Positions 1-63,612 of a stretch of 64,000 nt of DNA are shown in pieces. The position numbers and the translations under genes were made by a program. Position 1 is the first letter of the stretch. Every line of letters starts with the position of its first letter. Origin of the DNA: a virus; IMG/VR virus record IMGVR_UViG_3300042547_000361, positions 4,327 to 68,326 of that record; one strand, 5' to 3'. The notes beneath the pieces are model-generated. The model had not been told where the DNA came from. It searched no databases and saw only the letters and a program-made list of their open reading frames with translations.

Positions 1-349
1 GCGGCATGGAAGGGGTCTGCGCCCTCCCTCATCTTGCGGGTTGTGCCTGCTACACGGGCTGCGTATTGTTCGATGGTCAACATGGAAGTACTCCGATCAA
101 TGGTTGAATACCGGAAGGGGCCAATCCCCAACCGATGCCTCTAGTTTACGGATGGGGACAATTTGGCACTGTCTGCAACAGCACAGCAGGGCCGTTTCTG
201 ACCCCCACCGTACCCCCACCAGCCCTTATTGACGGCGGCATGGCTACGTCACATGAACACTGTTTTGCACCCGCTACCACATCCCCCGTAATACCTACGT
301 CTTACCTTTTACCCACCCCAAAAAATTTCTATAAAAATTTAGCATAATC

Positions 350-369
350 TTTGTCTAATGCTAGACAAA
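350..369. promoter_or_regulatory. palindromic operator-like site TTTGTCTA-ATGC-TAGACAAA
   Basis: Perfect 8-bp inverted repeat with 4-nt spacer; related to the identical 17-mers at 49700 and 59269. Confidence 0.55.
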
Positions 370-376
370 TACAGGC

Positions 377-407
377 AAAAAAAGACCCCGCCGGTTTCCC
401 AGCGGGG
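377..407 (-). terminator. intrinsic terminator of the sRNA
   Basis: CCCCGCUGG-GAAA-CCGGCGGGG followed by UCUUUUUUU on the minus strand. Confidence 0.85.
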
Positions 408-460
408 CGCAATGGGGTTTCATTCCCAAGGAGAAAGCAAATGCCTTGCGGCAACTGCCC
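377..460 (-). ncRNA. putative trans-acting anti-RBS small RNA (~84 nt)
   Basis: Upstream TTGCTT-17-TACACT promoter; 5' GCAA-tetraloop hairpin; CAUUUGCUUUCUCCUU segment; GAAA-loop terminator plus U7; G-U pairs work only on the minus strand. Confidence 0.75.
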
Positions 461-475
461 GGCGCAGTGTATAGT
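446..475 (+). promoter_or_regulatory. sigma70-type promoter for the late operon
   Basis: TTGCGG (446-451), 18-nt spacer, TATAGT (470-475), upstream of the first late gene. Confidence 0.5.
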
Positions 476-494
476 ATGCAGCATCGGTAAGCAA
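466..494 (-). promoter_or_regulatory. sigma70-type promoter for the sRNA
   Basis: Minus strand TTGCTT (494-489), 17-nt spacer, TACACT (471-466). Confidence 0.7.
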
Positions 495-516
495 GGGCGC
501 ACGCCTAAACCCGCAC

Positions 517-1125
517 ATGCTTGATCACTTATTGGATTTTGAGCCAGATGTTGTCGCCAACAGCGACGCGGGCGCAGCCTTAGCTAAGCACACTGCAGCG
601 CAAGTGATCGACGCGCAGGTATCCACCGCAGACTTCCTCGCCTCCTTGGGCTCCCCGGACACCGACACGGTAGTCTCAGCGCTTGAGCAGCGCACAGCCC
701 GCGAAGCATTCAACGCTGTCGTCACCCAGGACGACGCGGCCCACCACAAGCTCGCCCAGATTGAAACCCCCGCAGCCGTGCGCCACCTTGTTGGTATGCT
801 CACCGCATACGACTGGGAATTTGTACAGCAAGCCAAAGAACTGCGCGGGTACACGGTGGCCAAGCTGGTGGAAGAGACGCAGAACCCCAACGCAAACATC
901 CGGCTCAAGGCGCTTGGGTTGCTTGGCAAGGTCACCGAGGTTGGGCTGTTCACAGACAAGATTGAGGTAAAGAAGACGGACCTCACGGAAGAAGAGATCG
1001 ACAAAAAGCTCAAGGAGAAGCTGGCCAAGTTCATGGATATCACGGACATTGCGCCAGAAGATATAGAAGACGTATGCCCTGTTGGGGAAAATCCTAGTGA
1101 CGACCAACCCACCGCTGACGCCTGA
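517..1125 (+). CDS. putative terminase small subunit
   Basis: 202-aa helical protein directly upstream of and overlapping TerL. Confidence 0.55.
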   Translation: MLDHLLDFEPDVVANSDAGAALAKHTAAQVIDAQVSTADFLASLGSPDTDTVVSALEQRTAREAFNAVVTQDDAAHHKLAQIETPAAVRHLVGMLTAYDWEFVQQAKELRGYTVAKLVEETQNPNANIRLKALGLLGKVTEVGLFTDKIEVKKTDLTEEEIDKKLKEKLAKFMDITDIAPEDIEDVCPVGENPSDDQPTADA

Positions 1126-2632
1126 GCAAGCCAAGGCGCTGCTCATGAATCTCTCGCAGCTTACTGCGCAGGAGAAGCTTGAGGCGTTGGAGCTGCTGGA
1201 CAAGGCGACGGAGCACCGCCAGCGTGGGCTGGCCCGGGGCGACATGATCGAGTTTGCCAAGTCGGTGTATCCGGGCTTCAAAGTGGGGCCGCACCACAGA
1301 AAACTGGCTAAAATTTTCAAGGATGTGATCGACGGCAAGAAGCGCCGGGTCATCATCAACATCGCGCCAAGGATGGGTAAGTCCGAGTTCTCGTCCTACC
1401 TGTTCCCGTCTTTCTTTCTGGGCAACTTCCCGGAAAAGAAAATCATCATGGCAACGCACACGGCGGGCCTGTCAGAAGACTTTGGACGCCGGGTCAGGAA
1501 CTTGATTGAAGGCGATGATTACCAAGAACTTTTCTCCACCACTAGGGTGGCTGACGACCAAAAAGCTGCGGGTAAATGGTCCACCAGCGCAGGCGGCCAG
1601 TACTATGCTGCTGGTGTCGGTGGCGCTCTGGCTGGTCGCGGTGCTGATCTCTTTGTCATTGACGACCCTCATAGTGAGCAGGACGTAAAGGCCAACAGCC
1701 GCTTGGCGTTTGATACCGCGTGGTCGTGGTTTCAGACTGGCCCGCTACAGCGCTTGATGCCAGGGGGCGCGATCATAATCATCATGACGCGCTGGGGCAA
1801 ACTCGACCTGACCGGGCGGCTGCTGGACTACCAGACCAAAAATCCCGACGCCGATCCGTGGGAAGTGGTGGAGCTGCCAGCCATCTTGCACGAGGACACC
1901 GAGAACGAGAAAAGCCTTTGGCCAGAGCAGTGGCCGCTTGAGTCGCTCAAGCAAAAGAAGCTGTCGTTGGACCCTCAGTACTGGAACGCCCAGTACATGC
2001 AAAACCCGGTATCCAACACAGCGGCAATCATCAGCCGCAAATCATGGCGCATATGGCCAAGCGAAGAGCCGCCTAGGTGCGACTATATTATTCAGTCATG
2101 GGACACGGCGTTTGAAGCCAAAACCAGCGCCGACTATAGTGCATGCACGACCTGGGGCGTGTTCTACAACGAGGAAGAAAACGACGCCGCACAGGTTATA
2201 TTGCTCGACGCATTCAAAGACAGGATGCAGTTTCCCGAGTTAAAAGCCGCAGCGCTCAAGCACTATAAAGAGTGGGAGCCAGACGCGTTTATTGTGGAGA
2301 AGAAAGCTGCCGGTGCCCCGCTGATTCAAGAACTCAGGCGCATGGGTATACCTGTGCAGGAGACAAACCCAAGCCGGGGTAACGACAAGATTGTGCGTCT
2401 GAACGCGGTTGCGGATTTGTTTGCATCAGGTACAGTGTGGGCTCCAGATACTCGCTGGGCACGCGAGGTCATCGAGGAGGTTGCGTCCTTTCCCAACGGC
2501 GAGAACGATGACTTTGTCGATACTACCTCCCAAGCGCTGCTCAGGTTCAGACAGGGCGGGTTTATCTCGCTGGCATCCGACGAGAAGGATGAGCCGAAAT
2601 TCTTCCGCAGGCGCTCTGCGGCGTACTATTAA
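1082..2632 (+). CDS. terL: terminase large subunit
   Basis: Walker A APRMGKS, Walker B FVIDD, nuclease motifs SWDTA and DDFVD; true start may be GTG 1097 or ATG 1145. Confidence 0.95.
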   Translation: MGKILVTTNPPLTPEQAKALLMNLSQLTAQEKLEALELLDKATEHRQRGLARGDMIEFAKSVYPGFKVGPHHRKLAKIFKDVIDGKKRRVIINIAPRMGKSEFSSYLFPSFFLGNFPEKKIIMATHTAGLSEDFGRRVRNLIEGDDYQELFSTTRVADDQKAAGKWSTSAGGQYYAAGVGGALAGRGADLFVIDDPHSEQDVKANSRLAFDTAWSWFQTGPLQRLMPGGAIIIIMTRWGKLDLTGRLLDYQTKNPDADPWEVVELPAILHEDTENEKSLWPEQWPLESLKQKKLSLDPQYWNAQYMQNPVSNTAAIISRKSWRIWPSEEPPRCDYIIQSWDTAFEAKTSADYSACTTWGVFYNEEENDAAQVILLDAFKDRMQFPELKAAALKHYKEWEPDAFIVEKKAAGAPLIQELRRMGIPVQETNPSRGNDKIVRLNAVADLFASGTVWAPDTRWAREVIEEVASFPNGENDDFVDTTSQALLRFRQGGFISLASDEKDEPKFFRRRSAAYY

Positions 2633-15311: not shown

Positions 15312-18300
15312 ATGGATCGCTATTGGGTTGGTGGTACTGGCACTTGGAATACAAGCAGCACTACAAACTGGTCTGCTACCTCCGGCGGGGGTAGCGGTGC
15401 GTCTGTCCCGACCGTAGCGGATAGCGTTTTCTTTGACCAAGCGGGAACCTATACCGTTACCATGACGGGCGCATTGGCCTGTCTGGACATCACGGTGTCA
15501 GCAGGTACAGTGACGTTTGCTACAGGTACAACCCCCACACTGAACGTTCGCGGCTCCATGTCACTGTTGGCCGGGACGGTTTGGAGCAGTACAGGAACGA
15601 TCACTTTTAGCTCTACCACAACAGGCCGCACAGTTACGACTAACGGCGTAACAATTTCTGGGGTAATTGATTTCAATGGAGTTGGTGGTGGCTGGACGCT
15701 TGGCAGTGCGTTGTCTACATCTGCACTTGCTAATATCGGTGTAACAGTCACGGCAGGAACATTTGATACTGGAAATTACAATTTAACTGCAAGGTTTTTT
15801 TCCTCTAGTAATTCAAATACTCGTACTGTTAATCTTGGTTCTAGCACGATAACCCTCAACAACGATACTGCAACAAGTATAAGCTTTTTAACTTCTACAG
15901 GGTTGACTTTTAATGCGGGCACATCAAGTTTTGTTATAACCACCCCCGGAACAGTAAATGGTGGCGGACAAACTTTTTACAATATAAGTTTTACCAGTAC
16001 AAGTTCGGCGAACGTCAGAGCAATTACCGGTGCAAACACGTTCAACAATCTTGCCATAACCGGACCCTCATCCGCTGGCGTAGTCAACGTCACTTTCGCC
16101 GCCCAACAAACCATCAACGGCACACTGTCCACCACAGGCACAGCAGGTAACAGGCGCGTTTTCTTTGCTTCTGCCACTTACGGCATCTCACAAGACCTTG
16201 TGGTCAACTCTACCCCCAGCCTGACAGACGCAGATTTCCGTGGCCTGTACGTCCGTGGCACAGCAGCCCCCATCAGCGGAACACGCATCGGCAATCGCGG
16301 TGAGTGCAGGGGCATCACGTTTGATGCGCCTAAGATTGTTTACGCAAACTTAGTTTTGAGTTCATTTTATGAAAACATTTGGGCAACGTCATCTGGCGGA
16401 ACTCCCTCACTTGTTAATTTCCCTTTGCCGCAAGATACTGCCATTATAAACAATGCTAGTGGTAACTCAGGCTTTTCAATTGGCTTTAACATTAACTATA
16501 TTCCAACACTGGATATGTCTTTGCGTACAACGGCATTGTCCTTTAGTTTTGGCAATACAACTACAGCATATGGAAATTTTGTAGCGGGGTCTGGTGTAAC
16601 TTTTAGCGGTTCTAACTCTGTCACCTTCTCCGGCGGCACAACCCAAACCATCACCAGCGCAGGTAAAACATTTTCCTGCCCCATCACCGTAGATACCTAC
16701 GGCGGCACAGTACAGCTTGCTGATGCGTTAAACATTGGGTCAAGCTCGCTGACGGTGACAAACGGTACGTTTACTACGGCGGGGTATGCGGTAACAGCGG
16801 GAACTTTATCGTCTAGCAACAGCAACGTCAGAACAATTAACCTTGGCGCGAGTGTGTTGACATTAACGCTAAGTGGCGGTTCGCCAGTAAACTTTACTAC
16901 ATCAACAAATTTAACTTTAAATACTGGAACGTCTCAAGTCACACTAACTTCATCATCAGCGTTTAATTTTCATGGTGGAGGATTGATTTTTTACAATGTG
17001 GCGCTTACAGGAACATCCTCAGTAACACACAATTTCACTGGCGCAAATACGTTTAACAATCTTACTTATACAGCACCAGCATCTGTTGGCCTGACGGGAT
17101 GCAATTTTTCCGCCAACCAAACCATCAACGGCACACTGACCTGTGCTGGCGCATCAGCAGTACGGCGCATCTTCTTGCGGTCTGAAACAATAGGCACTCC
17201 GCGCACCCTGACGGTCAACGCCATCTCTGCCACTGACTGCGACTTCCGCGACATTATTCTTGCTGGCACAGCATCAGGTGCATCACCCACTCGGGCTGGT
17301 AACTGCGGCGGCAATACGGGCATCACATTCCCTGCTGCCAAGACGGTGTACTGGAACCTTGCAGGCGCTCAAAACTGGAGTGCAACAGCATGGGCACCGG
17401 GGTCTGGTGGATTGCCTGACATCAACAACTTCCCACTGGCACAAGACACTGCTGTGTTTGATGAAGCCGCTGGCAGCGTAACCGGAACCATCACAATTAA
17501 CGCCGCATGGAACATCGGCACGTTTGACGCTTCACTGCGTACCAGTGCAATGACGCTGAGTACCAGCACAAACGCCCCCGTTGTTTACGGCGACTGGAAG
17601 TTTGGCACCGGCGTTACGTCATCCAGCACCACAGGCACAATTAATTTTGTCAAAAACGGCACCCAAACCATCACCAGCAACGGCGTTCAGTTTGGCTGTC
17701 CTGTAACAATCAACCACCCACTTGCAAACGTCCAGCTTGCTGATGCGCTGTCTTTTGCTGCAACAAGAACATTGACGTTAAACGCAGGGACGTTTGATGC
17801 TGTCACTTACAACGTGACAACAAGCCAGTTTGCCAATAATTCCTCATCCAACACGGTAAGAATGGGTTCAGGTACTTGGACATTATTTGGTTCTGGAACT
17901 GTTTGGAATATGAATGGCTCGCCAACACTTATTGTTGGCACATCAACAATTGTTCTTTCAGACACATCAACATCGTCAAGAACTTTTGTTGGAGGTAGTC
18001 TTTACTACAACAAATTAACCATTGGTGGCGCAACAGGAACATCAACGCTTACTATCAATAACAACAATACATTTGGGGAACTTGCCGCCACCAAAACGGT
18101 GGCGCACACAATTGATTTTGGAACAACCATACAGACCTTTGGCAAATGGTCTGTAACAGGCACAGCGGGTAACGTAGTAACAATTACAGGTACAAGCACC
18201 ACAAACGTCATTGCTGGCCCTGCTGTTACTGGTGTTGATTACTTGGCAATGGGTACTTGGGGTATTTCCACAACAAGCCCCGGTGAGTTTTACGCTGGAG

Positions 18301-21300
18301 CCAACAGCACAGGCACAGCCGCTGCCCCTGTATTCAGAACAGCCGCACCAGCACCTCGCACTCTTTATTGGGTAGGCGGCACAGGCAACTGGTCATCCAC
18401 AACCAAGTGGTCTACTTCATCAGGGGGCGGCTCTGGTGCGGCTATCCCAACATCTTTAGACGCAGTCAATTTTGATTCGCTGTCTAACGCTACAGCCTAC
18501 ACAGCCACGATTGACGCTGGTGTAACGCTTGCCCGATGCGCATCATTCACAATGGCTGGTCCTGCATCTGGCAACGTGACCTTTGCAGGCTCAGTGGGCA
18601 TTGCCTTCCACGGCAACGTGAGTTTTGCTGCTACGGGCATTACCCGGACTTACAATGGCGCAATGCAATGGGCTGGAAACAGCAGCTACACGTTTACGAC
18701 CAACGGGGTGGCGCTAACAAGCTCAATAACTGTTGTTGGTGTTGGCTCTACATGGACACTTGGTAGCGCATTAAATAATGGAACATTTTCAATTAGTGTG
18801 GATAGCGCAAGTTTTAGCACATCCCCAAGCAATTACTCAGTTTCCGCTTCTGCTTTAGGTTCTGGTGGTTCAAGCGTAAGATCAATTGTATTAAACGCAA
18901 GTACATTAACTTTTACCTCATCACCAATTGATTTCAACGGAGCAAACTTAACTTTTAATTCTGGAACATCATCAATTATAGGCACGGGTGGATCATTTAG
19001 TTTTTTTGGTAACAATCAAACTTTTAATAACGTCAGCTTTACAAACGTTGCCGCAACATCTATCAGTGTTAATGGCGCAAACACATTCAACACACTGTCG
19101 TTTGCTGGCCGCACATCAGTTGGCATCAACGCAGTCACATTTAACGCCAATCAAACCATCAGCACCCTGACGCTCAACGCCGGAACAGCCGCTGCCTTCC
19201 GCACGTTCTTGGCGTCTGACACCATCGGCACAACCAGAACTTTAACCGTAACCACCCTGACCGCAGGTGCTGCTGACATTGACTTTCGTGACATCACCAT
19301 TGCTGGCGCTGCTGCTCCGATCTCAGGCACTCGGTTTGGTGATGCCAAGGGTAACAGCGGGATTACATTTGATGCGGCAAAGACGGTTTACTACCGACAG
19401 ACAGGTTCGGCAAACTGGGGCACAACAGGTACAGGCTCTTGGTCTGCTACGTCTGGCGGTGGTTTTGATGCAACTCAATTTCCGCTTGCCCAAGATACAG
19501 CCATTTTCCCCGCTGCAACGTATCCAGCATCCGGATCAACAACCACAATCAACGCCAACTACAACATTGGCACGATTGATATGTCGCTGCGTACCGGCAA
19601 CACAATGACGCTGGCAACGGGTACTACCACACCTCAAATCTACGGCAACTGGATCAATGGGACGGGGACAACGCTGACGGGTACGGGGGCAATGACCTTT
19701 GCTGGACGAGGAAGTCAGACGATTACGAGTGCAGGGAAGACGTTTACACAAGGGTTCACAATCAACACCCCCAGTGGCTCTGTAACATTGCAGGACGCGT
19801 TTGTAACGAGTGCAGCTTCTAATTTTGCTCACACACAAGGTACTTTTGATGCAAACGGGTTTAATTTCACACTCAGCAGTTCCGGTTCCGCTGCATATGG
19901 CGTTTCTGGTACAACTACGAGAACAATTGCTATTGGCTCTGGAACATGGTCTATTGCCACATCTGGAACTGCGTTCAATGCAGTGACAGCCACAAATTTA
20001 ACCGTCACCGGCACGGGCACAATCAGTTTAACCAGCGCATCGGCCAAGACATTTGCAGGCGGCGGCATATCCTACTCCGGCATCACCCTCAACCAAGGCG
20101 GTGCAGGTGCGCTGACCATCACAGGCAACAACACTTTTAAAGACATCACCAACACTTACAGTGCAACGGGTGCAACGTCAATCACCCTTGGCGCTACAAC
20201 CCAGACCCTGACAAACCCTTGGACAGCAACAGGCGCAGCAACACGGGTTCTCACGGTAAGTGGTACATCTGCCGCATCTCCGGGCACTTTGATCTTCTCT
20301 GGCTCAGGTACAGCCGCCAATGTGGACTACCTGACCGTCTCAAACGTCCGTGCTTACCCTTTGGTCGATGACTGGTATGCAGGGCCAAACTCTACCAACA
20401 GCGGGTCACTGGGCTGGTACTTTGTAGCCGCAGGCGGCACAGTCTATTCCGTCACCATTACCGAGACTGGCACAGGTACAGACAGCATCACAGCCAGGGT
20501 AACACTGCTTGGCACAATTTCAGAAACCGGCACGGGCACGGATTCAGTTTCGGCTGGCTTACAGTACCTTGGTGCCATCACCGAGACTGGCACGGGAACA
20601 GACTCTATATCGGGCACATTCCGGCCCAGCGCAACCATTACAGAGACAGCTACTGGATCGGATGTAGAGTCTGCCATCCTTGCAGCAATAGCTCGGATAA
20701 ACGAAACCGCTACCGGCTCTGATGCTGACAGTGCACAGTACACCACTAACCCCAGTGTTAGTGAATCGGCAACGGGAACGGACACGGACAGCGCCAAAAT
20801 GACGGCAAAGTCCACGATCAGTGAAAACGCTACCGTAACAGATGCAGCATCGGCATTGGCAACGCTTTTAGCTGCTGTCTCAGAGGCTGCAACAGCAACC
20901 GATCTTATCTCTGCAATTCAGGGGTTGTTTGCTGCGATTCTTGAATCTGCCACTGGCACAGACAGCGTTGACGCACCTGGGAGTACCTACAACCCATCAT
21001 TGAGTGAGCTTGCTACAGGAACAGACAGCGTATCGGCTTTGGTTGTCTTGGTATCTCAAGTTGCCGAGTCTGCCACTATCAATGACGTAACGGCTGCGTT
21101 TAAAGCGTATTTGGCGGAAATCATCGAAGCCGCTTCCGGTGCCGATACTGTTTTTTCGCAGTTTGTTGCCCGTTCTGTCATCAGTGAAGCTGCCACTGGC
21201 ACAGACACAGACTCTGCAAAATTTACCGCGCAGGCATCCATTGCTGAGACAGCCACTGGAACTGATACGGAGTCTCCCCGGTATATTGCAAACCCTGTGA

Positions 21301-22205
21301 TAGCCGAGACTGCCACTGGCACAGACACAGACTCTGCCAAATACACCGCCCGGTCAAACATAGCCGAGACTACCACAGGCACGGACACCCTCAATACAAA
21401 CGCTACGCTCAACTCCAGTGTTGACGAAACCGCAATTGCTCAAGAGATTGTGCGTGGTTTTATGGTGGCGGCTGTACAGATTTCAGAGTCTGCCACTGGA
21501 ACGGATCAAATCAGTGCCCTTCGCGCTCTTGCGGCTGCGGTTGTAGAAACGGCAACAGTAACTGATTCCCTGTCTGCCCAAGCTATCTTCAGGGGTATCC
21601 TGCAAGAAATTGCCACCCTGACTGATTCTGTTAATGCTCCGGGGTCAACGTACAGCGCTCCGATCATAGAGCTAGCTACGCTACAGGATGTGGTGCGGGC
21701 AGCAGCTACCTTCCCAGCATCTTTGACAGAGACGGCCACAGGCACCCAGACCAACAGCGCAGCATTTATTCCCTCTGCCCAAGTCTTTGAGACTGCCACA
21801 ATCACTGATGTAAACAGCGCCTTGGTTGCTTTTGCTGCGCGGGTAGCAGAAAACGCAGTCATCACAGATCAAGTATCTCCTCCGGGAAGTATCTACAACC
21901 CAGTGGTTCTGGCTGTTGCCCAACTTGTGGACAATGTCAGCCCAGCGGGGAGCATCTACAACGCCCCCGTCTTAGAGTCAGCAGCAATCACAGATGCCCT
22001 GATAGGGGCGTTCCTGTGGAACTTGATCGACGATAGCCAGAACCCGAACTGGGCCAATATAACCGACAGCCAGACACCGGGTTGGGTAGAAGTCGGTACA
22101 TCCCAAGGCACGGGCTGGGTAACGATCCCAACGCCGCAGAATCCCGGTTGGTCAAACATAGATGACAGCCAGCCCCCGAACTGGCAAAATATCACTAACG
22201 TGTAA
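15312..22205 (+). CDS. giant repetitive tail spike/adhesin-like protein (2297 aa)
   Basis: Five ~340-aa Thr/Gly/Ser/Asn-rich modules, ~20-aa ETATGTDS repeats and 11-aa Trp repeats. Confidence 0.75.
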   Translation: MDRYWVGGTGTWNTSSTTNWSATSGGGSGASVPTVADSVFFDQAGTYTVTMTGALACLDITVSAGTVTFATGTTPTLNVRGSMSLLAGTVWSSTGTITFSSTTTGRTVTTNGVTISGVIDFNGVGGGWTLGSALSTSALANIGVTVTAGTFDTGNYNLTARFFSSSNSNTRTVNLGSSTITLNNDTATSISFLTSTGLTFNAGTSSFVITTPGTVNGGGQTFYNISFTSTSSANVRAITGANTFNNLAITGPSSAGVVNVTFAAQQTINGTLSTTGTAGNRRVFFASATYGISQDLVVNSTPSLTDADFRGLYVRGTAAPISGTRIGNRGECRGITFDAPKIVYANLVLSSFYENIWATSSGGTPSLVNFPLPQDTAIINNASGNSGFSIGFNINYIPTLDMSLRTTALSFSFGNTTTAYGNFVAGSGVTFSGSNSVTFSGGTTQTITSAGKTFSCPITVDTYGGTVQLADALNIGSSSLTVTNGTFTTAGYAVTAGTLSSSNSNVRTINLGASVLTLTLSGGSPVNFTTSTNLTLNTGTSQVTLTSSSAFNFHGGGLIFYNVALTGTSSVTHNFTGANTFNNLTYTAPASVGLTGCNFSANQTINGTLTCAGASAVRRIFLRSETIGTPRTLTVNAISATDCDFRDIILAGTASGASPTRAGNCGGNTGITFPAAKTVYWNLAGAQNWSATAWAPGSGGLPDINNFPLAQDTAVFDEAAGSVTGTITINAAWNIGTFDASLRTSAMTLSTSTNAPVVYGDWKFGTGVTSSSTTGTINFVKNGTQTITSNGVQFGCPVTINHPLANVQLADALSFAATRTLTLNAGTFDAVTYNVTTSQFANNSSSNTVRMGSGTWTLFGSGTVWNMNGSPTLIVGTSTIVLSDTSTSSRTFVGGSLYYNKLTIGGATGTSTLTINNNNTFGELAATKTVAHTIDFGTTIQTFGKWSVTGTAGNVVTITGTSTTNVIAGPAVTGVDYLAMGTWGISTTSPGEFYAGANSTGTAAAPVFRTAAPAPRTLYWVGGTGNWSSTTKWSTSSGGGSGAAIPTSLDAVNFDSLSNATAYTATIDAGVTLARCASFTMAGPASGNVTFAGSVGIAFHGNVSFAATGITRTYNGAMQWAGNSSYTFTTNGVALTSSITVVGVGSTWTLGSALNNGTFSISVDSASFSTSPSNYSVSASALGSGGSSVRSIVLNASTLTFTSSPIDFNGANLTFNSGTSSIIGTGGSFSFFGNNQTFNNVSFTNVAATSISVNGANTFNTLSFAGRTSVGINAVTFNANQTISTLTLNAGTAAAFRTFLASDTIGTTRTLTVTTLTAGAADIDFRDITIAGAAAPISGTRFGDAKGNSGITFDAAKTVYYRQTGSANWGTTGTGSWSATSGGGFDATQFPLAQDTAIFPAATYPASGSTTTINANYNIGTIDMSLRTGNTMTLATGTTTPQIYGNWINGTGTTLTGTGAMTFAGRGSQTITSAGKTFTQGFTINTPSGSVTLQDAFVTSAASNFAHTQGTFDANGFNFTLSSSGSAAYGVSGTTTRTIAIGSGTWSIATSGTAFNAVTATNLTVTGTGTISLTSASAKTFAGGGISYSGITLNQGGAGALTITGNNTFKDITNTYSATGATSITLGATTQTLTNPWTATGAATRVLTVSGTSAASPGTLIFSGSGTAANVDYLTVSNVRAYPLVDDWYAGPNSTNSGSLGWYFVAAGGTVYSVTITETGTGTDSITARVTLLGTISETGTGTDSVSAGLQYLGAITETGTGTDSISGTFRPSATITETATGSDVESAILAAIARINETATGSDADSAQYTTNPSVSESATGTDTDSAKMTAKSTISENATVTDAASALATLLAAVSEAATATDLISAIQGLFAAILESATGTDSVDAPGSTYNPSLSELATGTDSVSALVVLVSQVAESATINDVTAAFKAYLAEIIEAASGADTVFSQFVARSVISEAATGTDTDSAKFTAQASIAETATGTDTESPRYIANPVIAETATGTDTDSAKYTARSNIAETTTGTDTLNTNATLNSSVDETAIAQEIVRGFMVAAVQISESATGTDQISALRALAAAVVETATVTDSLSAQAIFRGILQEIATLTDSVNAPGSTYSAPIIELATLQDVVRAAATFPASLTETATGTQTNSAAFIPSAQVFETATITDVNSALVAFAARVAENAVITDQVSPPGSIYNPVVLAVAQLVDNVSPAGSIYNAPVLESAAITDALIGAFLWNLIDDSQNPNWANITDSQTPGWVEVGTSQGTGWVTIPTPQNPGWSNIDDSQPPNWQNITNV
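20455..22195 (+). repeat. coding tandem repeats (~60-nt period, then 33-nt period)
   Basis: ETxTGTD unit about every 20 aa; identical TGCCACTGGCACAGACACAGACTCTGC at 21191 and 21311; W-x-x-I-x-D-S-Q-x-P-x at the end. Confidence 0.85.
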
Positions 22206-34908: not shown

Positions 34909-37900
34909 ATGGCACAGTACCTCACGCTCCCCAACGGAAGTCAGTTTGAAATTCGACAGGGCGAAACGCGAGAACAAGCGCTGTCCAAAGCTTTGCAACA
35001 GTACCCAGAAGCCTTTGGGTTCGGGCAAGCAGCGCCCACAGAAACGCCCGAGTCTGGGTTTGTGCCAGCGCTCAAGTCTGGCATCTCCTCGCTCAAGTCT
35101 GACGTAGCCGCGCTGGCCGGTCGTACCGGCATCATGGATCAGGCTGCGGCAGAAAAGTATATCCAAGAGCAGGCGGACTACCAAAAGCGTACGTTCAAGC
35201 CCACCGCCACGTTTGGCGAAGCGCCGGTTACTAAAACCCTGGAGCTGCTTGGCGGCTCCTTTCCCTACATGGCCGCGCCCATCGCCGCTGGTGCCCTTGC
35301 ACCGGCAGGCGCTCTTGCACTGGGGGCAGCAGGCGCAGCGTCAGCGGCGCAGTTCACGGGTTCCAACCTATCCCGGCAGATGGGCGAGGGCAAGGCGCTC
35401 GGTGAGACCGACATCACGGCTGCCGCCCTTGCGGCTGTTCCCCAGGCTGCGCTCGATGCGCTCAGTCTCAAGATGCTGCCCGGTATTCGCAGTATTTTTG
35501 GCCAAGCAGGCAAGGAAATTTCCAAAGACGTTGCCCAGGCAATTGCCCAGCAGAGCGTCAAAGAAGTTGCCAAGGACTACGCGGTTGCCACCGGCAAGGC
35601 AATGGGCACTGAGGGTTTGACCGAGGTCGGGCAGCAGGCGCTTGAGCGTTTGCAAGCCAGTTTGTCGTTGACCGACGAGAAGGCTCGGGACGAATACCTT
35701 GAGAGCCTGATCGGCGGCGCGGTGTTGGGCGGCGTGCTGTCCCCTGCCGGTCGCTACGTCGAGCGTGGTCGCCAAGCCAAGAAGGAAGAGGCAGACACCC
35801 TTGCTGCGGCAATGAAGCAGCGCGAGGCTGACGCCAAGCAGCGCGAAGCAGCACTGACTTCCCCCGAGGGGCGGCTTGCGTTTGTTGAGGACTACGAGGC
35901 TCGGCAGGCCCGGTTCCAAGAACTCAAAGACATAGCCAAGCCCGGCAAGGACGCCACGCCGCTGCAGCAGGCCGAGTACACCGAGATCAAGAAGGAAAAG
36001 AATGACCTGGGCAGGAGCCTGTACCGCGACAGCGCCGAGTACAAAAAGGCGGTGCCCATAGCCCAGCAGCTCAGAGAGCAGCGCCGCGTCGATGCGATGA
36101 CGCCCCAAGAGTATCAAATGGAGCAGCTCGGGCTTGCCCCAGGACTTGCCGCCCCGCCAGCAGCACCGACACCGCCCTCGGCAACGGACGAGCTGTTCAG
36201 CTTGTACACCCAGGGTGCGCCTGCTACTACTGCGCCCAAAGCTGAACCTGTTTCACCCGTCAATCAGTACGTAGCGCAGCAACTTAATCTGGCCAGCCAA
36301 AGTTCGTACCTTAAACCGGAGGCGGCTGACTACGCTGCGTACCTGTTGCAAAACCCCGAGATGGCTGCGCAGATAACAACGGAGACGCCCATGCCGGGGC
36401 TAGCCCGTGCCGAGCGCAACGCCGTTGCTGGCATGGTTAAGCTGCAACTTCAAACGCAAGCGAAGGAGGCGCTGCAGCCTCGCGTTGAAGACTTGGCCGG
36501 GCAAGTACCCAAGAAGGCTGTTGGCAAGCGCAAAGCCCCTGATTACGAGGCGTACCTGCAAGACTTGGAGGCCATCGACTTTGATCGCCGCGAGGGCCAG
36601 ACAGCCGAAGACATTGCCAACATGGAGAAGCTGCAACGTCCTACCGACGTTACCGCTCAAGGCGAGATGTTTGGTCAACCTGCGCAGCAGACGGTATTGG
36701 GAGAAGCGCCAAAGACACGCCGCGAGCTGCTTGCTGATTTGCGTGTTGCGCGTGTTGCGGGCGACCGCAACGCCGCCGAAGCCATCATCAACAGCCTGCG
36801 AGCAGTAGACAAACGAGACGAAGCCGACGCAGCACGCGTTGCGGGCGGCCAGCAAAAGTTTGTTCTCAATGGTGAGCAGCGCGAAGAACTCAGTGCTCAA
36901 GGCTACAGCGAAGAGCAAATTGACGAAGTAGAAGCCAAGGCGCAAAAGTCGCTAGGCCAAGCAATCGGCGCAGGCCAGACGCCGCTGTCCACAGCCATTC
37001 AACAAGTTGCATCTGAAAGCCGTGCTGATGCGTTTTCTGAAGTCGTGGACTTGGTCAATCGCTTTAACAAGGGGGCGGCAAAGCAAGAGCAGTTAGATGC
37101 CGCTAAAGAGCGGGTTGTGTCCGGGCTGCTCACAGACATCCGGCAATCACGCCAAGAGCCGTTGACCGAGGAAGAAACGCGTGACATTACGCGCAATGCA
37201 AACGAGTTGCTGCGCGAGCTGACCGAACGCTTTGGCGACACGCGCTCGCTGTCTCAAAAGGGCAAAGACCTTTTTGTACCCGCCCAAACTCGCACAGGCG
37301 AATTTCGTACCGATGAAGTGCCCGGCACAGGCTATCCGACAGTTGAGTCTCGTGTTCCGGGTCGGCAGACTTTTAGCAGCCCATTTGCGGCGGCGCAATC
37401 TATTCGTGAAGGGCTTGAGGAGCTGCGCACCCGCGCCATCACCTCGGCGCAAGCACCAAGCTATACACGCACGTTTACGCCCCGCGAAGTCAGTGTTGAT
37501 GCCGCAGAGGCGCAGCTTAGCCGTGAGTTAGCCAAAGACCCGCAGACGCACAGCCCCGAGCAGCGCCGCTTGCTGGAAGCAATTGGCGACAACGTGCGCA
37601 TGATGATGCGCCCTGAGACCCGGCAGGACGTTTCAAGCTGGCTTTACGACTTGGCGCGTGATCCCGCTACTGTGCCCACAGACAAAACGCAGGCCGTACG
37701 CGATGCGTTGCAGATGGTCGAGCAAGCCAAGTTGTCGGATCAAGAGCAGCTTGGGTTGCCGTTAGGCCCGGGCAAGAAGCTGCGGCAAGAAGCGCCGCAA
37801 GTGTTGAATAAACCAACGCCCGTGCAGCCAGGGTCGTTCAGCCAAGTCAGCTTTGAGCCTGAGTACGAGGCCGCTACGCCGACCGTTTTCAACAGCTACG

Positions 37901-40900
37901 CAGAACTCAAGCGATACCTTGCATCAGACGCGCTGCAAGAGATGCGGTCTGCCATTGGTTTGGCGCGGCCAACAATAGATCGACTTGAGCAGCGGGTCAA
38001 ACCGTTTGCGTTTCGTGTAGCGCTGTACCTGTCAAAGCTTGACGCACTCAAAGCCCGAGTTGTTGCGCTTGACAAGCGTGTGCAGGACATGCACGTTACT
38101 AAGCGCGAGGAACTTGAAACGCTCAAGAAAATGTCTGCGGCGGATGCGGCGGCAGAGACCCGTGCGCTCAATGAAGCGCAGCGCAATCTTCAAGAGCTGC
38201 GCAAACGTATGGCGGAGTTGGAAGCGCCGCTGCGCAAAGAATTGGAGCCGTTGCTCAAAGAATTTGACACAGCGCAAAAGCAGTTTGATAAAGCAGTTGC
38301 AGCAGAAGAAGCGTTGACGGCAGCAATGCTCAGCAACAACCAACTGTTTGGAGATCGTGAGCTTTTCGCAATCCAGAAGCTGCACAACGTGCAGCAACGG
38401 ATGAAGAACGCTCGCAGCAAACTGCACAAAGAGTTTCAAGAAGATTTTGGCAACGATCCCCGCAACCTTGCGCGGACGATGCGGGAGTTTAAAGAAAGCG
38501 GGAAACAAGGCGCGTTTAACGAGCAGCTTGCAAAAGCGCACAAAGAGTTGTACGACGTATTTTTTGATACGCGCAAAGACGACGTTGCCATACAACAGTA
38601 CTTGAAAACAGCCGCCAAACTGGACGCGCAGATTCAAGAGCAGGCGGGCAAGATTGACGCGCTGGGGGAGAAGCTACTTAACGCAGGTGTTGCACTTGAG
38701 GAAGCGCGTAGCAGCCAACTGGAAGCTGCGGAAAACCGCGACGAAATTCTTGATGCACGGCAACAGTCGCAAGAAGCGCAGCAGATACTCAGGGAGCTGG
38801 AAGCCAAACAACAAGCGCGTCTGGACGCGCTTGAAAAGCTGGAAGTAGAGCTTGGCCTTACACGCACGGAGATTCCGCATCGCGTTAGCGAAACGACAAC
38901 CGTGGCTGAAGTGCTGCGGGCATCGACCGCGTCAGAGAAAGCGCTTATACGGCAACGCAACGAAGCCGAAGCCAAACTTAACGAGGCGGCCGCCCCGGTA
39001 AAAGCGCTTTTCGCGTTTGACCGTCAGCGCACGGAAACACGTACCAAAAAACCCGAGACCGCTGCGCAAACCCAGGAACGGGATGCTCAGCGGCAACGCC
39101 TGCTTGAAGCAATCGGGCGTGATCCGGCCAGCTTTGATGGCGAGCGCGTCTCGTTTGAAAAACGCCGGGGATTGATAGAAGAACTTGGTACGGCAGAAGA
39201 AACGCGTGGAGAACTTGAAGCGCTGATTGCTGCGGCAGATGAAGCCGTTCCCTATTTGCAACAGCAGATTGCGGAAGCCGAGAAAGCGCTCAAGAGCATC
39301 GACAAAGAAATTGCGCAAGTAGAAGCGGCCAACAAGAAACGTCCGCGTAGCTTCCAAGCCAAACTGGAACAGCAGTCGGCAATGGTGGCGCTGGGGCCAC
39401 TGCGCGAGGTGCGGGATCGACTGGCTAAGAGTTTGCAGCCGTACCCACCAAACAGCCGCCCGAAAGACCGTACGGTTCGCAGTCTGGTCGAAGACTTGGC
39501 CGCACACGAGCGTGAGAAAGCCACAGCGCAAAGCAACTTGGCCACGCTTGAAGAACGCAAAGCTGATTTGGAAGCGCTGTTTTCTGACGACCCAGAAGTG
39601 CAGAAGGCGCGTACGCAAGCCATTGACAAGCGCATTGCCAAGGTCGAGAAAAACATTGAGAACCAAAAAGCTTCGCTCAAAGAAAAGGGGATCAAAGCGA
39701 GCACGCTCGACTCAAGGAAGCGCGAGCTGCGTAAGTCCTTTAAAGAACTGCAACGCCTTATGGCGCAGCGTTCGGCCAAGTTTGGTATCACCCGCAAAGC
39801 ACTGGCAGATGTTGGCAGGCCCGAGACCGCTGCGGCGGAAGAAGGCGAGCGCTTGGGCGCTCGCAAAGTGGGCCCTATTGTCAGGCCCGTACGCACCGCA
39901 GGCAACATACGCACAGGTGTGGCGGAGACTACCGAAGAGCGCAAGCTCAGCACACGCTCCAAAATAACTCAGGGCGGTAAGACGAAGACGGAAACGTCCA
40001 AGCAGGCTCAAGCCGCTGGCAATGTCGCTGCTGAAGCGCGTGCAGCTCAGCAGCCAGAAAAAACTGCAACGCAGTTGGCAGTAGAAGAGCTGCAACAGCA
40101 GCAGCAAATACTGGCGGCTAAAGAGCGCCTTGAAACAAGTATCAGGGTGCAGCTTGCTGACCTTGACATCCGGCTCAATGCGCTGCGGCGCAGCCAACGC
40201 CCCAACGTGCTTTTGATTCGTGATTTGGAAGCACAGAAAAGTGTGTTGCAGCGCGATTTGGTTGCCGCACGTATGGATGTGGAGCGCGAAGGTGCGTTGG
40301 CGGCAGAAGCTCAAAATATTGTTGACACCCAGTCCACGGTTGGCGGAATTTTAAGTGCGAGCTTCCCCGACGCTGCTGCGCAAACGCCCGAAGAAACCGT
40401 GCCCGACGACACCGCAGAGGCGTTGCAGACCGGGCTCAAGTCTCTAAGCAAAGACGAAGTTAAAACACTTGAAACTGCGTACGGCGCTAAAAAGCGCACG
40501 GACACTTTCTTGTCCAAGCTGCAAAAAGACGTTGTTGATATGGTCAACAACGGCGGTAAAGCCGTGGCCAAGGGCATCCGCAACATCATCAAAAAGCTGT
40601 CAGAAGGTGTGCTTGCAGTAGCGATGATTTTCAACCCGCAGTTCAACGCTACTAACTTTAGCTTTGATCTGCCCAAGGCGTACAGCCAAACTATCACCGA
40701 GAAGGTCAGCATAAAGGCGCAGGTGCCCGCATCTGCGCGGGAGCAGATGAGCCCGCTGGCACAAATGGTCTACGAGAACATGGCCCCCACCGCCAAGGCG
40801 TCCGGCAAAGGCTTTGGTATTGTGGACAAGGTCAACGGCTCAATCCACTTCTTTAACAACGACGGTAGTGTGTTGGTGCAAGGCCCCGCGCTTATGGGCA

Positions 40901-43900
40901 AAGATGTGGGCGATGTATTGGGCAAGTCGTCGCTTGAGGGCGGCCCCAAGATCACCCCTGCCGGACGCTTTACGTTGGAAGTCTCTAAGGATGATTTCTA
41001 CGGCACTTCGTTCAATTTGCTTGAGACGTTTGACAGCACGGGGTACGTTGCCATACATCCGGTGTATCTAGGCAACCTGAAAGAAAATCGGCTTGGGCGG
41101 CTGCAATCGCCAGAAGCTACGGACAACCGCGTCAGCTACGGCTGCATCAACACCACAAAAGAAATGTTTGTGGACAAGTTGGCCCCCAATGCCGACGCGC
41201 TAAATGGTGGCATGCTGTTTGTGTTGCCCGATGCAACTGAGCGTACTGCGGAAATGTTCCCGGAAAAAGTTGAGACGGTGACCAAGACCATCTCCGGCAC
41301 CGAGCAAACTGCCAAGGCCGAAAGTCGCTCGATTGTTGGACGGGAAGAAAAGCTGTTCGAAGGCAAGACGCTGTTCCAAGTTGCGACGGAGATCAACAAC
41401 TCACCACGCGTTGAAGTTGATCCGCAAAAGAGCGCCGCTACGCTGATGGCCAGCATTGCCGCTACTTCTAAGACCCCCCTGAACAGGGTGGTGGCGGAGC
41501 GGCTCAAAGGTCTGCTTGGCGTGACCGAAGTTCGGATTGCCAAAGATTTGCGCAACGACCAAGGCGGCGCTGTGTACGGCTCCGCTGCGATTGATGGTTC
41601 GCGTATTACGCTTGATGCTGACAGCGGCCTGAACGAGCAGACCATTCTTCACGAGGGCGTTCACGCGGCAATCGAAAGGGTGTTGCGTGCGCCTGAAAAC
41701 ATCATCACACCAAACCAGCGCAAGGCAAAACGCGAACTAGAAGCGCTGTACAAAGCGTACGCTGCCGACGCTGCTGCGCCAAACGACAACGCCAAAGAAA
41801 GCATAAGCGAGTTTGTAGCTGATGCCCTGTCTGACCCCGCAGTTCAACTGTACATGCAGGGCAAGAAGTGGACGCTCAAGCACATGTGGGAGTCGTTTAA
41901 AAACAGCATACTCAGCATGCTGGGGATTGAAACCCCTTCTACCATGCTGGAAGCTACCTTGGCGGCAGCAGACAGGTTGATGCTGACGGTGCCGCGTCCG
42001 ACAGCCAGGACTACAGAAAGCCTGTCTAGGAAAAAACCGAAGTACGCTTCGCCTGAGTGGGCCAGTGCCGGGGAGGACATCGGCAAAGTTGTGGCGCGGC
42101 AGCGCACCTGGGGTGACAAGATCAAGGCCAACGCCACTGGGCTGGCCTTTGAGACCCAGCTTGTGGATCGCTTTGCTGCGTTTGAACGGTTGCGCAAGTA
42201 CATGCCCGAGCAGATGGGCACCCAGATGATGTACTACCTGCGCATGTACGACCAGCGCATGAACTTTGTCTCGCAGGCTGTGAGCAACGGCGCTCTGCGG
42301 TTGGCTGAAAAGACACGCCCTGACGGCAAGACCGAGTACCTCATTGAGAGCAAAGAGGGGGCCAACATCGGCAATGTTGTGCAGATTCTGCGCGATGCGC
42401 AGCCGTTTGTCGGAAACGCCGAGGCTGTGAACCAAGCCTTTACGACCTACCTTGCCGCGCTGCGTGCCGACCGTGTGGGGCTGGCCAAGCTCAACTTTGG
42501 CGGCAGCGTCACGCAAGAGATGCTGGACCGCACTATGCGGATGGTCAACGGCAACGACAAGCTCAAGGATGTCTTTGAGAAAGCCCGCCGCGAGTACAAC
42601 GCATACAACCGCGATCAGATCGCAATGGTTGCCGCCACGGGCGCTATCTCCAAAGAGACGGAAGCAGCGCTAACTCGCACCGAGGACTACATCCCGTTCT
42701 ACCGTGCGCAAAACGGTGTCGTGGAGCTGCTCATTGGCGGCGAAGCGCCCATGCGTATTGGCAGCATTGCTGACCAGCCGTACCTGCAAGAGCTTGTTGG
42801 CGGCGACCAACCAATCTTGGACTTCATGACCAGCTCAGTGCAAAACACCAACATGCTGGTGGATATGGCGCTGCGCAATCTGGCGACCAAGAACGCTGTG
42901 TTTGAGCTGGTTAACCTGGGCGCTGCCAAGATCGTGGCTGGCAAACCGGCTGGCCGGGATGTGGTGCAGTTCAAGGTGGACGGCCAGGACCGCTACGCTG
43001 TGATCTCGTCGGAGAAGGTCACCATTGGCGGCAAGACGTTTGAGACGGGCGTGCCCGCTGACATCTTGGTCAAGGGCATGGAGGGCATCCCTACGCAGAT
43101 GCCGTTCCTGTTCCGCGCTATGGCGATGCCTGCGCAGCTTCTGCGCAAGGCCGTGACGCTCAGCCCCCTGTACATGGCCAAGCAGTTGTTCCGCGACTCA
43201 CTGGCCGCTCCGATTACCTCCGGTGCCAACTTTACACCCGTCATGGGGGCGCTGCGGCAGATCGGCAAAGAGTCTGGCAAAGCGCTGGAGACACGCGGCA
43301 TTACTGGTGGGCAGTACATGACCGGCAGTGCCGACGACATCACCAAGATTTTGCGTGACATATCGGATGGCAAGCCGGGCTGGATGTCGGCACTGAGCAA
43401 GGCCGAGGCTATCGGTATGAAGGCTGACGCTCTGACGCGCCGGGCACAGTACAACAGCTACATTGAGCAGGGCATGTCGGAGATGGAGGCCACGCTCATG
43501 GCGCTGGAGTCCATGAACTTTAACAAGCGCGGTGCCAGCCCCAGCATCCACGTAGCCAACGCACTGATCCCGTTCTTCAACGCCCAGATACAGGGCTTGA
43601 ACGTGCTGTACAAGGCGATGAGCGGCAAGATGCCGTTCAACGACAAGCTCAAGATTCAGCAAAAACTCTTGATGCGTGGCGGCATGATGGCGGCAGCATC
43701 GCTGCTCTACGCCGCGCTGATGGACGATGATGAGGCTTACAAGAACGCTACGCCGGACCAGAAGTACGGCAACTGGTTTGTGCGCGTGCCCGGTGTTGAC
43801 CAGCCGATCCGCGTGCCGGTGCCGTTTGAGATTGGCTACATCTTCAAGGCGCTGCCCGAGGCGCTGTACAACAGCATGACCGACAAGCACGGCAACGAAG

Positions 43901-48288: not shown

Positions 48289-49263
48289 TTACTCGTCGTC
48301 CCAGTCGCTGACGATGTCAGCGAGCTTGGACTTCTTGGCGGGTACCGCAGTCTCCTTAGAAGGAGCCTTGCGCACTTCTGGCTCGTCGTCCTCGGCTGCC
48401 GCTGGCTTGGTCTTGGGAGCCTTGGCCTTCGGTGCTGGGGCTTCCTCTTCCTCGGCTTCAGGCTCGACCTTGGGCGCGGCCTTGGCCTGCGTCGGCTTGC
48501 CGGGGATATCCATCGGCGCTGCCTTGGGCTTGACGCCATCGGCCTGGGCAACGGTCATAACCACTGCCCGCTTGGCATCGTCGCTCTCAGCCTGCCGGGT
48601 AACAACGTCGTACTCGGCGTCCTCCAGCCAGCGCACGGGCGTGAAGAACAGCTTGGGGCTCTCGGCCTTGGTGTCGAACTTCATGCGGGTGACGATCTGC
48701 TCGGGGTTGACCGGAGGCGTCTGCGCAGCCAGGAACCGTGCATAGGCTTGCAGCGGGCGCTTGTCGCCATCTTCCTTGCCGAAGATTGAGGTCGCGGGCA
48801 GCGTAAGCTGCAGCACATCGCCGTCGGGGTTGTTGGCCAGCACCACAGCCAAGCGCTGTTGGAAGCGGCAGGCGCGGCTGTTGCCGTTGCCAGACCCTGC
48901 TTCGTTCTGGGGGCAGCCCATGCAGGTCTTGTTCTGCGGCTCCTTGAGGGAGGCGTCGGGCTTCTCGCCGTCATTGCTCCAGCAGTCCGGGCCTGCGATC
49001 TTGTCTGGGTCGTACGCACCTGCGTAGAAGATGCGGCTGACTTTGGGCGCTGCCTTGACGACAACCACATCGAGGTGACGGTCATCAATGGATGCGATCT
49101 CCTTGCCACCAGAGACAAGGCGGAACACACCGCCCTTGATGGAGATGCGCTTGGTCGAGGCACCAGCACTGCCGCCCGTCAGGGCTTTGGCAGTTTCAGA
49201 CAGCTCGTTGTTGCGAGCGAAGGCGGGGACATTGGATGCGTTAAAAAGCGTGATGTTGCTCAT
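48289..49263 (-). CDS. putative ssDNA-binding/annealing protein
   Basis: Replication cluster, Cys motif, Pro/Ala/Lys linker, acidic WDDE tail. Confidence 0.55.
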   Translation of the reverse strand: MSNITLFNASNVPAFARNNELSETAKALTGGSAGASTKRISIKGGVFRLVSGGKEIASIDDRHLDVVVVKAAPKVSRIFYAGAYDPDKIAGPDCWSNDGEKPDASLKEPQNKTCMGCPQNEAGSGNGNSRACRFQQRLAVVLANNPDGDVLQLTLPATSIFGKEDGDKRPLQAYARFLAAQTPPVNPEQIVTRMKFDTKAESPKLFFTPVRWLEDAEYDVVTRQAESDDAKRAVVMTVAQADGVKPKAAPMDIPGKPTQAKAAPKVEPEAEEEEAPAPKAKAPKTKPAAAEDDEPEVRKAPSKETAVPAKKSKLADIVSDWDDE

Positions 49264-49681: not shown

Positions 49682-49699
49682 GTGCTTTCTCCTGTTGTT

Positions 49700-51885: not shown

Positions 51886-51904
51886 CTGCTTTCTCCTTGT
51901 GTTT

Positions 51905-59225: not shown

Positions 59226-59254
59226 TTTGCTTTCTCCTTTTTACAAATGTTGCC

Positions 59255-63316: not shown

Positions 63317-63329
63317 TTGCTTTCTCCTT

Positions 63330-63596: not shown

Positions 63597-63612
63597 TTGC
63601 TTTCTCCTTTGG

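Follow-up and report, generated by a model that had tools for sequence, protein, structure and literature searches.

A conserved small-RNA unit, complementary to a shared ribosome-binding site, as a candidate for the joint silencing of early genes in a family of uncultured freshwater phages

Introduction

Phages are known to time the shut-off of their early genes by means of proteins, such as RegA and RegB of T4 or repressors, or of antisense RNAs that have a single target. In T4, where RegB cuts within GGAG, the two Reg proteins act after transcription, on translation-initiation regions, and turn off early genes collectively. In this study, we describe a locus of an uncultured, freshwater phage family at which a comparable task may fall to an RNA, so that the specificity factor would be an RNA instead of a protein. 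The locus lies at positions 377-459, minus strand, of a 64,000-nucleotide (nt) stretch of DNA, hereafter the window, which comprises bases 4327-68326 of the 68,326-base virus record IMGVR_UViG_3300042547_000361 of IMG/VR. There, a predicted small RNA (sRNA) of about 83 nt contains a stretch exactly complementary to the ribosome-binding site (RBS) shared by a group of early genes. An earlier note, made from the letters of this DNA, had proposed that such an RNA silences these genes in trans, be it for early shut-off, for a carrier or immunity state, or for the exclusion of superinfecting phages.

Several bacterial sRNAs, among them AbcR1/2, NfeR1 and MmgR, present a CU-rich motif in a single-stranded region or loop to the Shine-Dalgarno (SD) sequence of several mRNAs, and have their own promoter and intrinsic terminator. 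These RNAs are, however, chromosomal, serve host metabolism and use short, generic anti-SD seeds, whereas the seed of the phage RNA extends into a phage-specific spacer and the start codon, and its predicted regulon consists of the phage's own early genes. Among phage RNAs, sar of P22 and c4 of P1/P7 are small, pair with an RBS region and stop translation, their structure presenting the complementary bases (PMC12197685). In the part of that 2025 review of phage-derived sRNAs available to us, each of them controls one gene (ant), in cis or within its own operon, and the RNAs covered are single-target RBS blockers (sar, c4) and host-directed sRNAs, none of them of a multi-target design. Our locus, in contrast, is a separate unit that matches about ten genes, and its RNA has no Rfam match to any family of the sar or c4 kind. 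The sRNAs of phage PAK_P3 were considered as a precedent and dropped, as the only phage matches in the paper are 11-nt ones in gp78 and gp67. The earlier note knew of no description of the multi-target design; likewise, our literature search, which left subscription journals and supplements outside its scope, found no description of a phage RNA whose targets are a regulon of that phage's own genes, addressed by way of a common RBS.

The closest parallel in design is, by analogy, that of the start-associated sequences (SAS) of Cluster K mycobacteriophages. SAS is a 13-bp asymmetric, SD-containing box that stands in one orientation, at a distance of a few bases, before the start codons of 11-19 non-structural genes, and four genomes have a single copy in the opposite orientation, away from gene starts (PMC3203893). 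In the accessible text of that paper its function is unexplained and the authors left open whether its partner is an RNA or a protein; in that of a 2025 paper, SAS is still called unverified (PMC12699233). Our phage matches this arrangement, with an SD-containing box in one orientation at a subset of non-structural starts and one reverse copy, as an analogy of design between unrelated sequences. The Cluster K box differs in sequence (GGGATAGGAGCCC), host phylum and phage type, and the accessible text describes no RNA partner for it, whereas the reverse copy in our phage sits in a well-defined promoter-RNA-terminator unit.

Results

The predicted sRNA gene occupies window positions 377-459 of the minus strand, and the unit occurs only once in the record by a covariance-model search (score of this copy, 101.5 bits). 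Its length is 83-84 nt, the 5' end being placed from the -10 hexamer and the start of the first hairpin. Read from that end, all on the minus strand, it comprises a 5' hairpin with a GCAA loop (RNA nt 1-24, window 436-459), the 3' strand of which is the anti-spacer UUUGCU; the seven bases UUCUCCU (RNA nt 25-31, window 435-429), predicted by RNAfold to be unpaired between hairpins; a middle hairpin (RNA nt 32-47, window 413-428); and an intrinsic terminator (377-408) with a 10-bp GC-rich stem, a GAAA loop and a U-run. The segment CAUUUGCUUUCUCCUU (RNA nt 17-32, window 428-443) is the exact complement of the shared SD-spacer-AUG sequence. A terminator scan likewise placed a stem at 408-385, with 10 pairs (8 GC) and the tail CTTTTTTT, followed directly by the U-run at 384-377 on the transcribed strand; in window 1-1500, this tool counted 2 terminators against 1.9 expected from shuffles. 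The fold of the minus strand of 377-460 has an energy of -39.7 kcal/mol and a z of -3.16, equalled or bettered by 1 of 200 shuffles; the plus strand of the same stretch does no better than chance (z -0.95, 33 of 200). The letters quoted in the earlier note for an RNA of about 84 nt are correct: its promoter-like hexamers, its hairpins with GCAA and GAAA loops and its terminator were all found. Its picture of an anti-SD toehold left open while the anti-spacer and anti-AUG part is held in the 5' stem agrees with RNAfold and with the folds of relatives given below. At gathering thresholds, an Rfam scan of the window returned no match, including none to C4, mmgR/suhB, Spot 42 or Betaproteobacteria toxic sRNA.

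The unit is widespread among related phages. A terL search of IMG/VR yielded at least 598 related stretches, of which 80 were kept for comparison. A covariance model built from ten copies found the unit in 65 of the 71 sources searched at E <= 1e-4 (47 distinct copies) and weakly in two more (L038, L053), that is, in 67 of 71; it found none in L048, L050, L052 and L055. Its position is constant, directly ahead of the terS-like gene and on the minus strand, as the earlier note had proposed to check. For the upstream comparison, 69 loci and the window, each with at least 200 nt before the terS-like start, gave 59 distinct sequences; 55 of these show the same arrangement, and those without it are again L048, L050, L052 and L055. 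The unit is also present in two of three relatives binned into metagenome-assembled genomes (MAGs). The nearest cultured phages have a terL identity of only 45-53%, and the model found nothing in one of them, DSL-LC04 (L083). Additional model matches elsewhere in relatives (E 2e-4 to 0.8), such as L029 9476-9553 and L019 7189-7267, were set aside, since they have no seed and no U-run; these two are antisense within the late region.

Folded singly, all 45 distinct copies form the 5' hairpin, the unpaired seed, the middle hairpin and the terminator. The anti-SD U(U)UCUCCU has a mean unpaired probability of 0.86, exceeding 0.7 in every copy, while the remainder of the RNA averages 0.34. Invariant columns cluster in a core of UGC and UUCUCC, separated by one or two U depending on the relative, with a few others in the terminator stem and U-run; the UGC next to the anti-SD is held in the 5' stem. 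This hairpin varies in shape by subgroup and starts 0-2 nt from the predicted 5' end in 45/45 copies. Of the cells on the model-fitted alignment, 91.4% pair; shuffling lowers this to 74.0%, with none of 500 shuffles reaching the value, and sliding the partners lowers it to 43-55%; 17 of 23 pairs change on both sides, including 4/4 of the middle hairpin. On the same alignment, RNAalifold independently recovers the terminator, with 8 of its 10 pairs compensatory.

It is the minus strand that folds. G-U pairs number 164 and A·C mismatches 3 in the minus-strand folds, against 44 and 29 in those of the plus strand; a C-A mismatch of the plus strand is a U-G pair of the minus strand, so that, as the earlier note had seen in the window, the G-U pairs are valid on this strand alone. 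This asymmetry identifies the minus strand as the selected structure, which is also the more stable one in 44 of 45 copies, by 7.7 kcal/mol on average. Altogether, the comparison with relatives, in unit, fold and strand, strongly supports a self-contained minus-strand RNA gene, and we consider it very probable that the RNA exists and is under selection as RNA.

Upstream of the RNA, on the minus strand, lie a -35-like hexamer TTGCTT (489-494) and, 17 nt away, a -10-like hexamer TACACT (466-471). They match the sigma-70 consensus at 3/6 and 4/6 positions, 7/12 together, which is below the threshold of the scan tool. The pattern TTGnnn-17-TAnACT (TACACT or TATACT; TAAACT in two) is present in 55/55 distinct unit-bearing variants, the TTG being kept 17 nt from the -10 in all of them; in 13 window-type sequences, our script reported the site shifted by one base, as CTTGCT-16-TATACA. 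At the same position, the four unit-less variants read GTGTAA-17-TACACC. The -10 is nearly palindromic, and the plus strand reads TATAGT at 470-475, which, from the conservation of its hexamers, would be the -10 of a candidate rightward promoter of the terS-like gene and the late operon, TTGCGG-18-TATAGT (446-475, plus strand). The two -10 regions thus overlap. The plus-strand -10 is TAnAnT in all 59 variants, preceded at 16-18 nt by a -35 of the form TTGCnn or TGCACn in every unit-bearing variant (55) and in one of the unit-less ones; the other three keep the -10 and have a weaker -35. From the hexamers, the region looks like a bidirectional promoter with the late operon on one arm and the RNA on the other. 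In the available part of a paper on such promoters in prokaryotes, they are pseudo-symmetrical and engage RNA polymerase in either orientation at the -10, one binding event excluding the other (PMC12825309). Our region differs in that one arm would be a regulatory RNA and the other a late operon, as judged from hexamer conservation.

The unit stands between two arms of the genome. Plus-strand genes (517-44622) encode packaging and structural proteins, among them a terS-like product, TerL (Terminase_6N/6C), the portal and a 3237-amino-acid (aa) LPD38 protein. Minus-strand genes comprise small ORFans and those for helicase, DNA polymerase and primase/helicase, and run on leftward beyond the window start. 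Window 131-517 is therefore the control region from which the two arms, early/replication and late, diverge. The unit heads the leftward direction, and its strong terminator separates it from a palindrome at 351-368 and the first early gene. The two ends of the record (G000 1-1835 and 66453-68326) overlap by about 1.6-1.8 kb at 99.75% identity, which indicates that the map is circular or terminally redundant.

The sequence to which RNA nt 17-32 are exactly complementary is AAGGAGAAAGCAAATG, found before the start codons of minus-strand early genes. This 16-mer has 9 matches in the window with at most 2 mismatches, against 0.06 expected (0 of 100 shuffles). The plus-strand match is the exact copy within the RNA gene itself, 428-443(+); the remaining eight are on the minus strand, and one further exact copy is found beyond the window, at G000 1984-1999(-). 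Every minus-strand copy directly precedes a start codon. The predicted targets in the window, all on the minus strand, are the RBSs of small early open reading frames (ORFs) of 88 aa (63594-63609; -25.2 kcal/mol), 54 aa (63314-63329), 57 aa (62968-62983) and 89 aa (62808-62823), each matched exactly; those of a 124-aa ORF of phrog_4389 (62413-62428) and of the DNA helicase gene, phrog_62 (51883-51898; -27.5 kcal/mol), with 1 mismatch; and those of another 57-aa ORF (59224-59239) and a 136-aa ORF (49679-49694), with 2 mismatches. The complementarity to the SD, spacer and start of early genes 49-63 kb away, which the earlier note had reported, is thus exact at four of the eight sites in the window and has one or two mismatches at the other four. 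Its "many early genes" amount to about 10 of some 45 minus-strand ORFs by a rough ORF call, in which the script missed two starts.

Pairing energies point to the same starts. When a 17-nt seed was run against both strands of the unique genome (cut-off, -19 kcal/mol or better), 11 minus-strand sites emerged, 10 of them directly before the start of an ORF of at least 54 aa and one before only a 13-aa frame. These ten belong to 5-6 small ORFans near 62.4-63.6 kb, G000 1984, the helicase gene and ORFs of 57, 102 and 136 aa. The plus-strand sites were just two, that of the RNA gene itself and one within the portal gene. When the complete RNA was cofolded with start regions (-40 to +30), the gain was -10 to -22 kcal/mol at 10 box starts; at 22 late starts, the mean was -5.2 and the best -11.0. 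By match counts, duplex scan and cofolds, the RNA is therefore complementary, above background, to the initiation regions of several unlinked mRNAs; its gene is about 2.8 kb or more from the predicted targets on the circular map. Judged from the folds, the invariant core and the covariance model, it has the makings of a trans-acting sRNA, that is, an independent unit with a conserved and accessible seed.

In the flanks of relatives, the box occurs only on the minus strand, before early-gene starts, and never on the plus strand. Five near-complete relative genomes contain it 3-7 times (at most 1 mismatch). Orthologues of two box genes keep it in 7/7 and 4/4 distinct contexts, two of them with a changed base, and two box-less early genes are never found with it (12/12 and 7/7). 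In the RNA-less lineage, four fragments of 8.6-22.6 kb contain no box at up to 2 mismatches; their early genes use varied spacers, and the orthologue of a box gene reads AAGGAGACTGACATG. Relatives that keep the motif without the RNA, which the earlier note had named as evidence against its proposal, were thus not encountered in the sequences compared: the sole RNA-less lineage is without the box, and other relatives keep both.

Discussion

Our analysis of this phage and its relatives suggests that 377-459(-) encodes a trans-acting anti-RBS small RNA of about 83 nt that shuts off early and replication genes together, a reading to which we give a probability of roughly 55%. The basis is computational: the unit with its fold, strand and conservation, an invariant seed, complementarity to the early RBSs, and a box kept at particular genes; from these we infer transcription, repression, their timing and the coupling to the late operon. 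Since the exposed stretch of the RNA is the exact complement of the RBS shared by early genes, it probably switches them off together. We consider it probable that the box-bearing starts are the targets, and repression is, with somewhat less assurance, the effect that we would expect.

In the mechanism that we propose, leftward transcription would start from the weak sigma-70-type promoter TTGCTT-17-TACACT, whose -10 overlaps that of the rightward terS-like/late promoter, and would end at the strong intrinsic terminator, ahead of the control region of the early operon. The RNA would display the single-stranded anti-SD U(U)UCUCCU between its hairpins, and this sequence would nucleate pairing with the 13-16-nt SD-spacer-AUG box AAGGAGAAAGCAAAUG of about ten early and replication genes (small ORFans, helicase). 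From there, pairing would extend to the outer part of the 5' hairpin stem, which is weak and rich in G-U, and the resulting duplex would cover SD and start codon, block 30S binding and shut off the group. The promoter region shared with the late operon suggests that the RNA is coupled to late firing, and an RNA that accumulates early as a damper is equally possible. A symmetric promoter that fires both ways, to the late operon and to an anti-RBS RNA, could constitute an early-to-late switch made of RNA, and the same logic might explain Cluster K SAS; we regard this wider reading as a whole as doubtful.

If our reading is right, one RNA would reach a whole set of the phage's own genes by way of an extended RBS common to them. 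This would be a new regulatory design, and it would give a function to conserved gene-start boxes that have been noted in other phages without explanation. The prediction is sharp, with one 83-nt RNA and about ten defined start regions, and it concerns a family that is abundant in environmental viromes, given the number of terL-related stretches in IMG/VR.

Several points weigh against this interpretation. The promoter scan of window 1-1500 gave no promoter-like site at the tool's threshold, because the sRNA hexamers are weak and match the consensus at just 7 of 12 positions. The covariation alignment was fitted to the model and leans towards it, helix 1 is not homologous between subgroups, and helices 1 and 2 were missed by RNAalifold on this alignment and therefore rest on the individual folds and the model-fitted counts. 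The evidence from phages without the RNA comes from one lineage and four short fragments. Moreover, the seed is one U shorter in 28 loci, about half of the relatives, yet 52 of 70 box-type RBSs at these loci keep the longer form, against which a short seed would leave a 1-nt bulge. Shorter RBSs are enriched where the seed is shorter (18/70, as against 2/46 at long-seed loci; Fisher p 0.002), in counts that are not phylogenetically independent. Finally, in the sequence examined, the unit-bearing relatives L042, L073 and L081 show no box, L080 shows one short-form box, and G002, G004 and G010 show 1-3 boxes. Of the interpretation in the earlier note, then, the RNA gene, the toehold, the complementarity and the unit in relatives stood up to the comparison, and strict covariation between RNA and RBS, which it had proposed to test, was not seen.

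The RNA may also be real and its CU-rich seed act elsewhere, on the SD sequences of host mRNAs as part of host take-over, by titration of an RNA-binding protein, or in the stabilisation or processing of early mRNAs instead of their repression, the match to the phage box being secondary. CUCCU, the core of the seed, is indeed a generic anti-SD. In a relaxed Rfam scan, the sub-threshold resemblances include mmgR (20.3 bits; cut-off 41) and Betaproteobacteria toxic sRNA (19.1 bits; cut-off 50), which scored best and are bacterial sRNAs that carry anti-SD motifs, and relatives with the shorter seed tolerate a bulge against their own box. We nevertheless consider this possibility unlikely. Invariance does not stop at the anti-SD and takes in UUGC, the counterpart of the phage-specific spacer GCAA; genome-wide, every one of the strongest predicted sites is a phage start with the box; and the box is gene-specific and kept across relatives.

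Another explanation dispenses with a functional RNA. The symmetric terS -10 would fire divergently, the terminator would only keep the stray transcript from the early operator and promoter, and AGGAGAA(A)GCAA would be a DNA site, for instance of a late activator that binds immediately ahead of the plus-strand -35. It accords with the overlap of the two -10 hexamers in a near-palindromic region and with the pseudo-symmetry of bacterial bidirectional promoters, which in the available text engage polymerase either way (PMC12825309). The motif also lies at about -39 to -54 relative to the inferred plus-strand start, so that a role at the DNA level is possible. However, a by-product needs no conserved fold, and 45/45 copies keep the 5' hairpin, a compensated middle hairpin and an unpaired seed; nor would a DNA site have to match the SD and start codon of about ten genes in both register and orientation. 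On balance, this explanation appears quite improbable.

We rate still lower the view that 428-443 is the RBS of a plus-strand, Cys-rich peptide of 27 aa (MPCGNC..., 441-524), coupled to the terS-like start, the minus-strand hairpin being an unrelated terminator. This ORF, behind the plus-strand copy of the motif, has a perfect SD, a 7-nt spacer and an ATG, and its stop overlaps the start of the terS-like gene (ATGCTTGA), which has no SD of its own, an arrangement that would allow translational coupling. In addition, 40 of 55 distinct variants have a start codon 4-12 nt after the GGAG of the plus-strand motif, and the nine closest relatives share M-x-C-x-N-C...IGKQG. On the other side, 15 of the 55 variants have no start codon at that distance, ORF lengths range from 8 to 35 aa and the ends vary in place, the frame in which the conserved TCGGTAAGCAAGGG is read differs, and single-base indels shift the frame even in the closest relatives (L003, L005, L007, L009). 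Conservation follows the pattern of -10, spacer and -35, not codon positions; the ORF has no family match; the inferred plus-strand promoter is downstream of the motif; and the G-U asymmetry puts the selected structure on the minus strand. We therefore rejected 441-524 as a conserved gene, start, frame and length all varying in relatives, and the simple translation that the earlier note had named as a rival finds no support in conservation, while 441-524 may still be translated in this particular phage. An antisense RNA acting in cis, of the sar or OOP type, is likewise not what the sequences suggest, as the opposite ORF is not conserved and the predicted plus-strand start is downstream of the unit. 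As for a structured element with a part in DNA packaging, be it a packaging RNA, a pac region or a site of terminase recognition, its constant place immediately upstream of the terS-like gene is all that speaks for it; we hold it to be extremely improbable, since it leaves promoter, terminator and exact early-RBS complementarity unexplained, and our analyses gave no sign of packaging.

Additional observations

Just downstream of the sRNA terminator in the minus sense lies the conserved palindrome TTGTCTAATGCTAGACAA (351-368), operator-like and at the head of the leftward early operon. It is a perfect 7-bp inverted repeat, TTGTCTA-ATGC-TAGACAA, kept in 20/20 aligned relatives. An AT-rich stretch with AATTTTTATAAAAATTT (321-345) adjoins it, in which no confident -10 was found. 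A leftward early promoter TAGACA-18-TATAGA (357-328) was considered and not retained, as its -10 is without the final T in the window and in relatives. Further along the early leader, window 203-280 forms a block of about 80 nt with a near-palindrome inside and GAACACTGTTT at 255-265; by BLAST it is conserved even in distant relatives and in RNA-less ones. In the RNA-less lineage (L048, L050, L052, L055), the operator-like palindrome and the -10 of the terS promoter are about 60 nt apart, as would be expected if the unit were inserted or deleted as one clean module. In L066 and L073, the sequence just upstream (plus strand) of the terminator resembles, by eye, the 3' end of a plus-strand tRNA (GGTTCGA.CCC...); if so, the RNA unit would adjoin different neighbours there. 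The first three leftward genes and their orthologues in relatives (window 83; L002 3587 and 3874, minus strand) share a second start box, AGGAGAAACTTCC-ATG, distinct from the AAGGAGAAAGCAA-ATG class.

The terS-like gene (517-1125, plus strand) is named by its position ahead of terL, a family search with its product having given no match. Two giant proteins are encoded on the plus strand. The larger, of 3237 aa (window 34909-44622), has an LPD38 "polyvalent protein" domain at its C-terminal end; for the other, of 2297 aa (window 15312-22205), Pfam gave no match. The end overlap of the record is interrupted, where one small gene begins, by about 140-180 nt of divergent sequence, which suggests either a circular assembly joining two population variants or a true terminal repeat. 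Host hints come from three short MAG-binned contigs labelled Burkholderiaceae, Limnohabitans and Phycisphaerales and are too weak for naming a host.

The parallel with Cluster K led to one more observation. In Mycobacterium phage Anaya (L084, JF704106), the lone reverse SAS copy, 48871-48883(-), lies in a 385-bp gene-free gap between gp96 and gp97 (48683-49067). By eye, this gap contains a terminator-like hairpin and T-run just after the gp96 stop, for which the scan tool made no call, and the reverse SAS is downstream of it. When a plus-strand RNA of 48790-48960 is folded (z -4.29, a strong fold), the anti-SAS CCUCCUAUCC is displayed as a 10-nt hairpin loop. Such a hairpin RNA may be the partner of the SAS boxes, which we offer as a lead and not as a result; if so, a single reverse copy of a start box, shown in an RNA loop, may explain Cluster K SAS.

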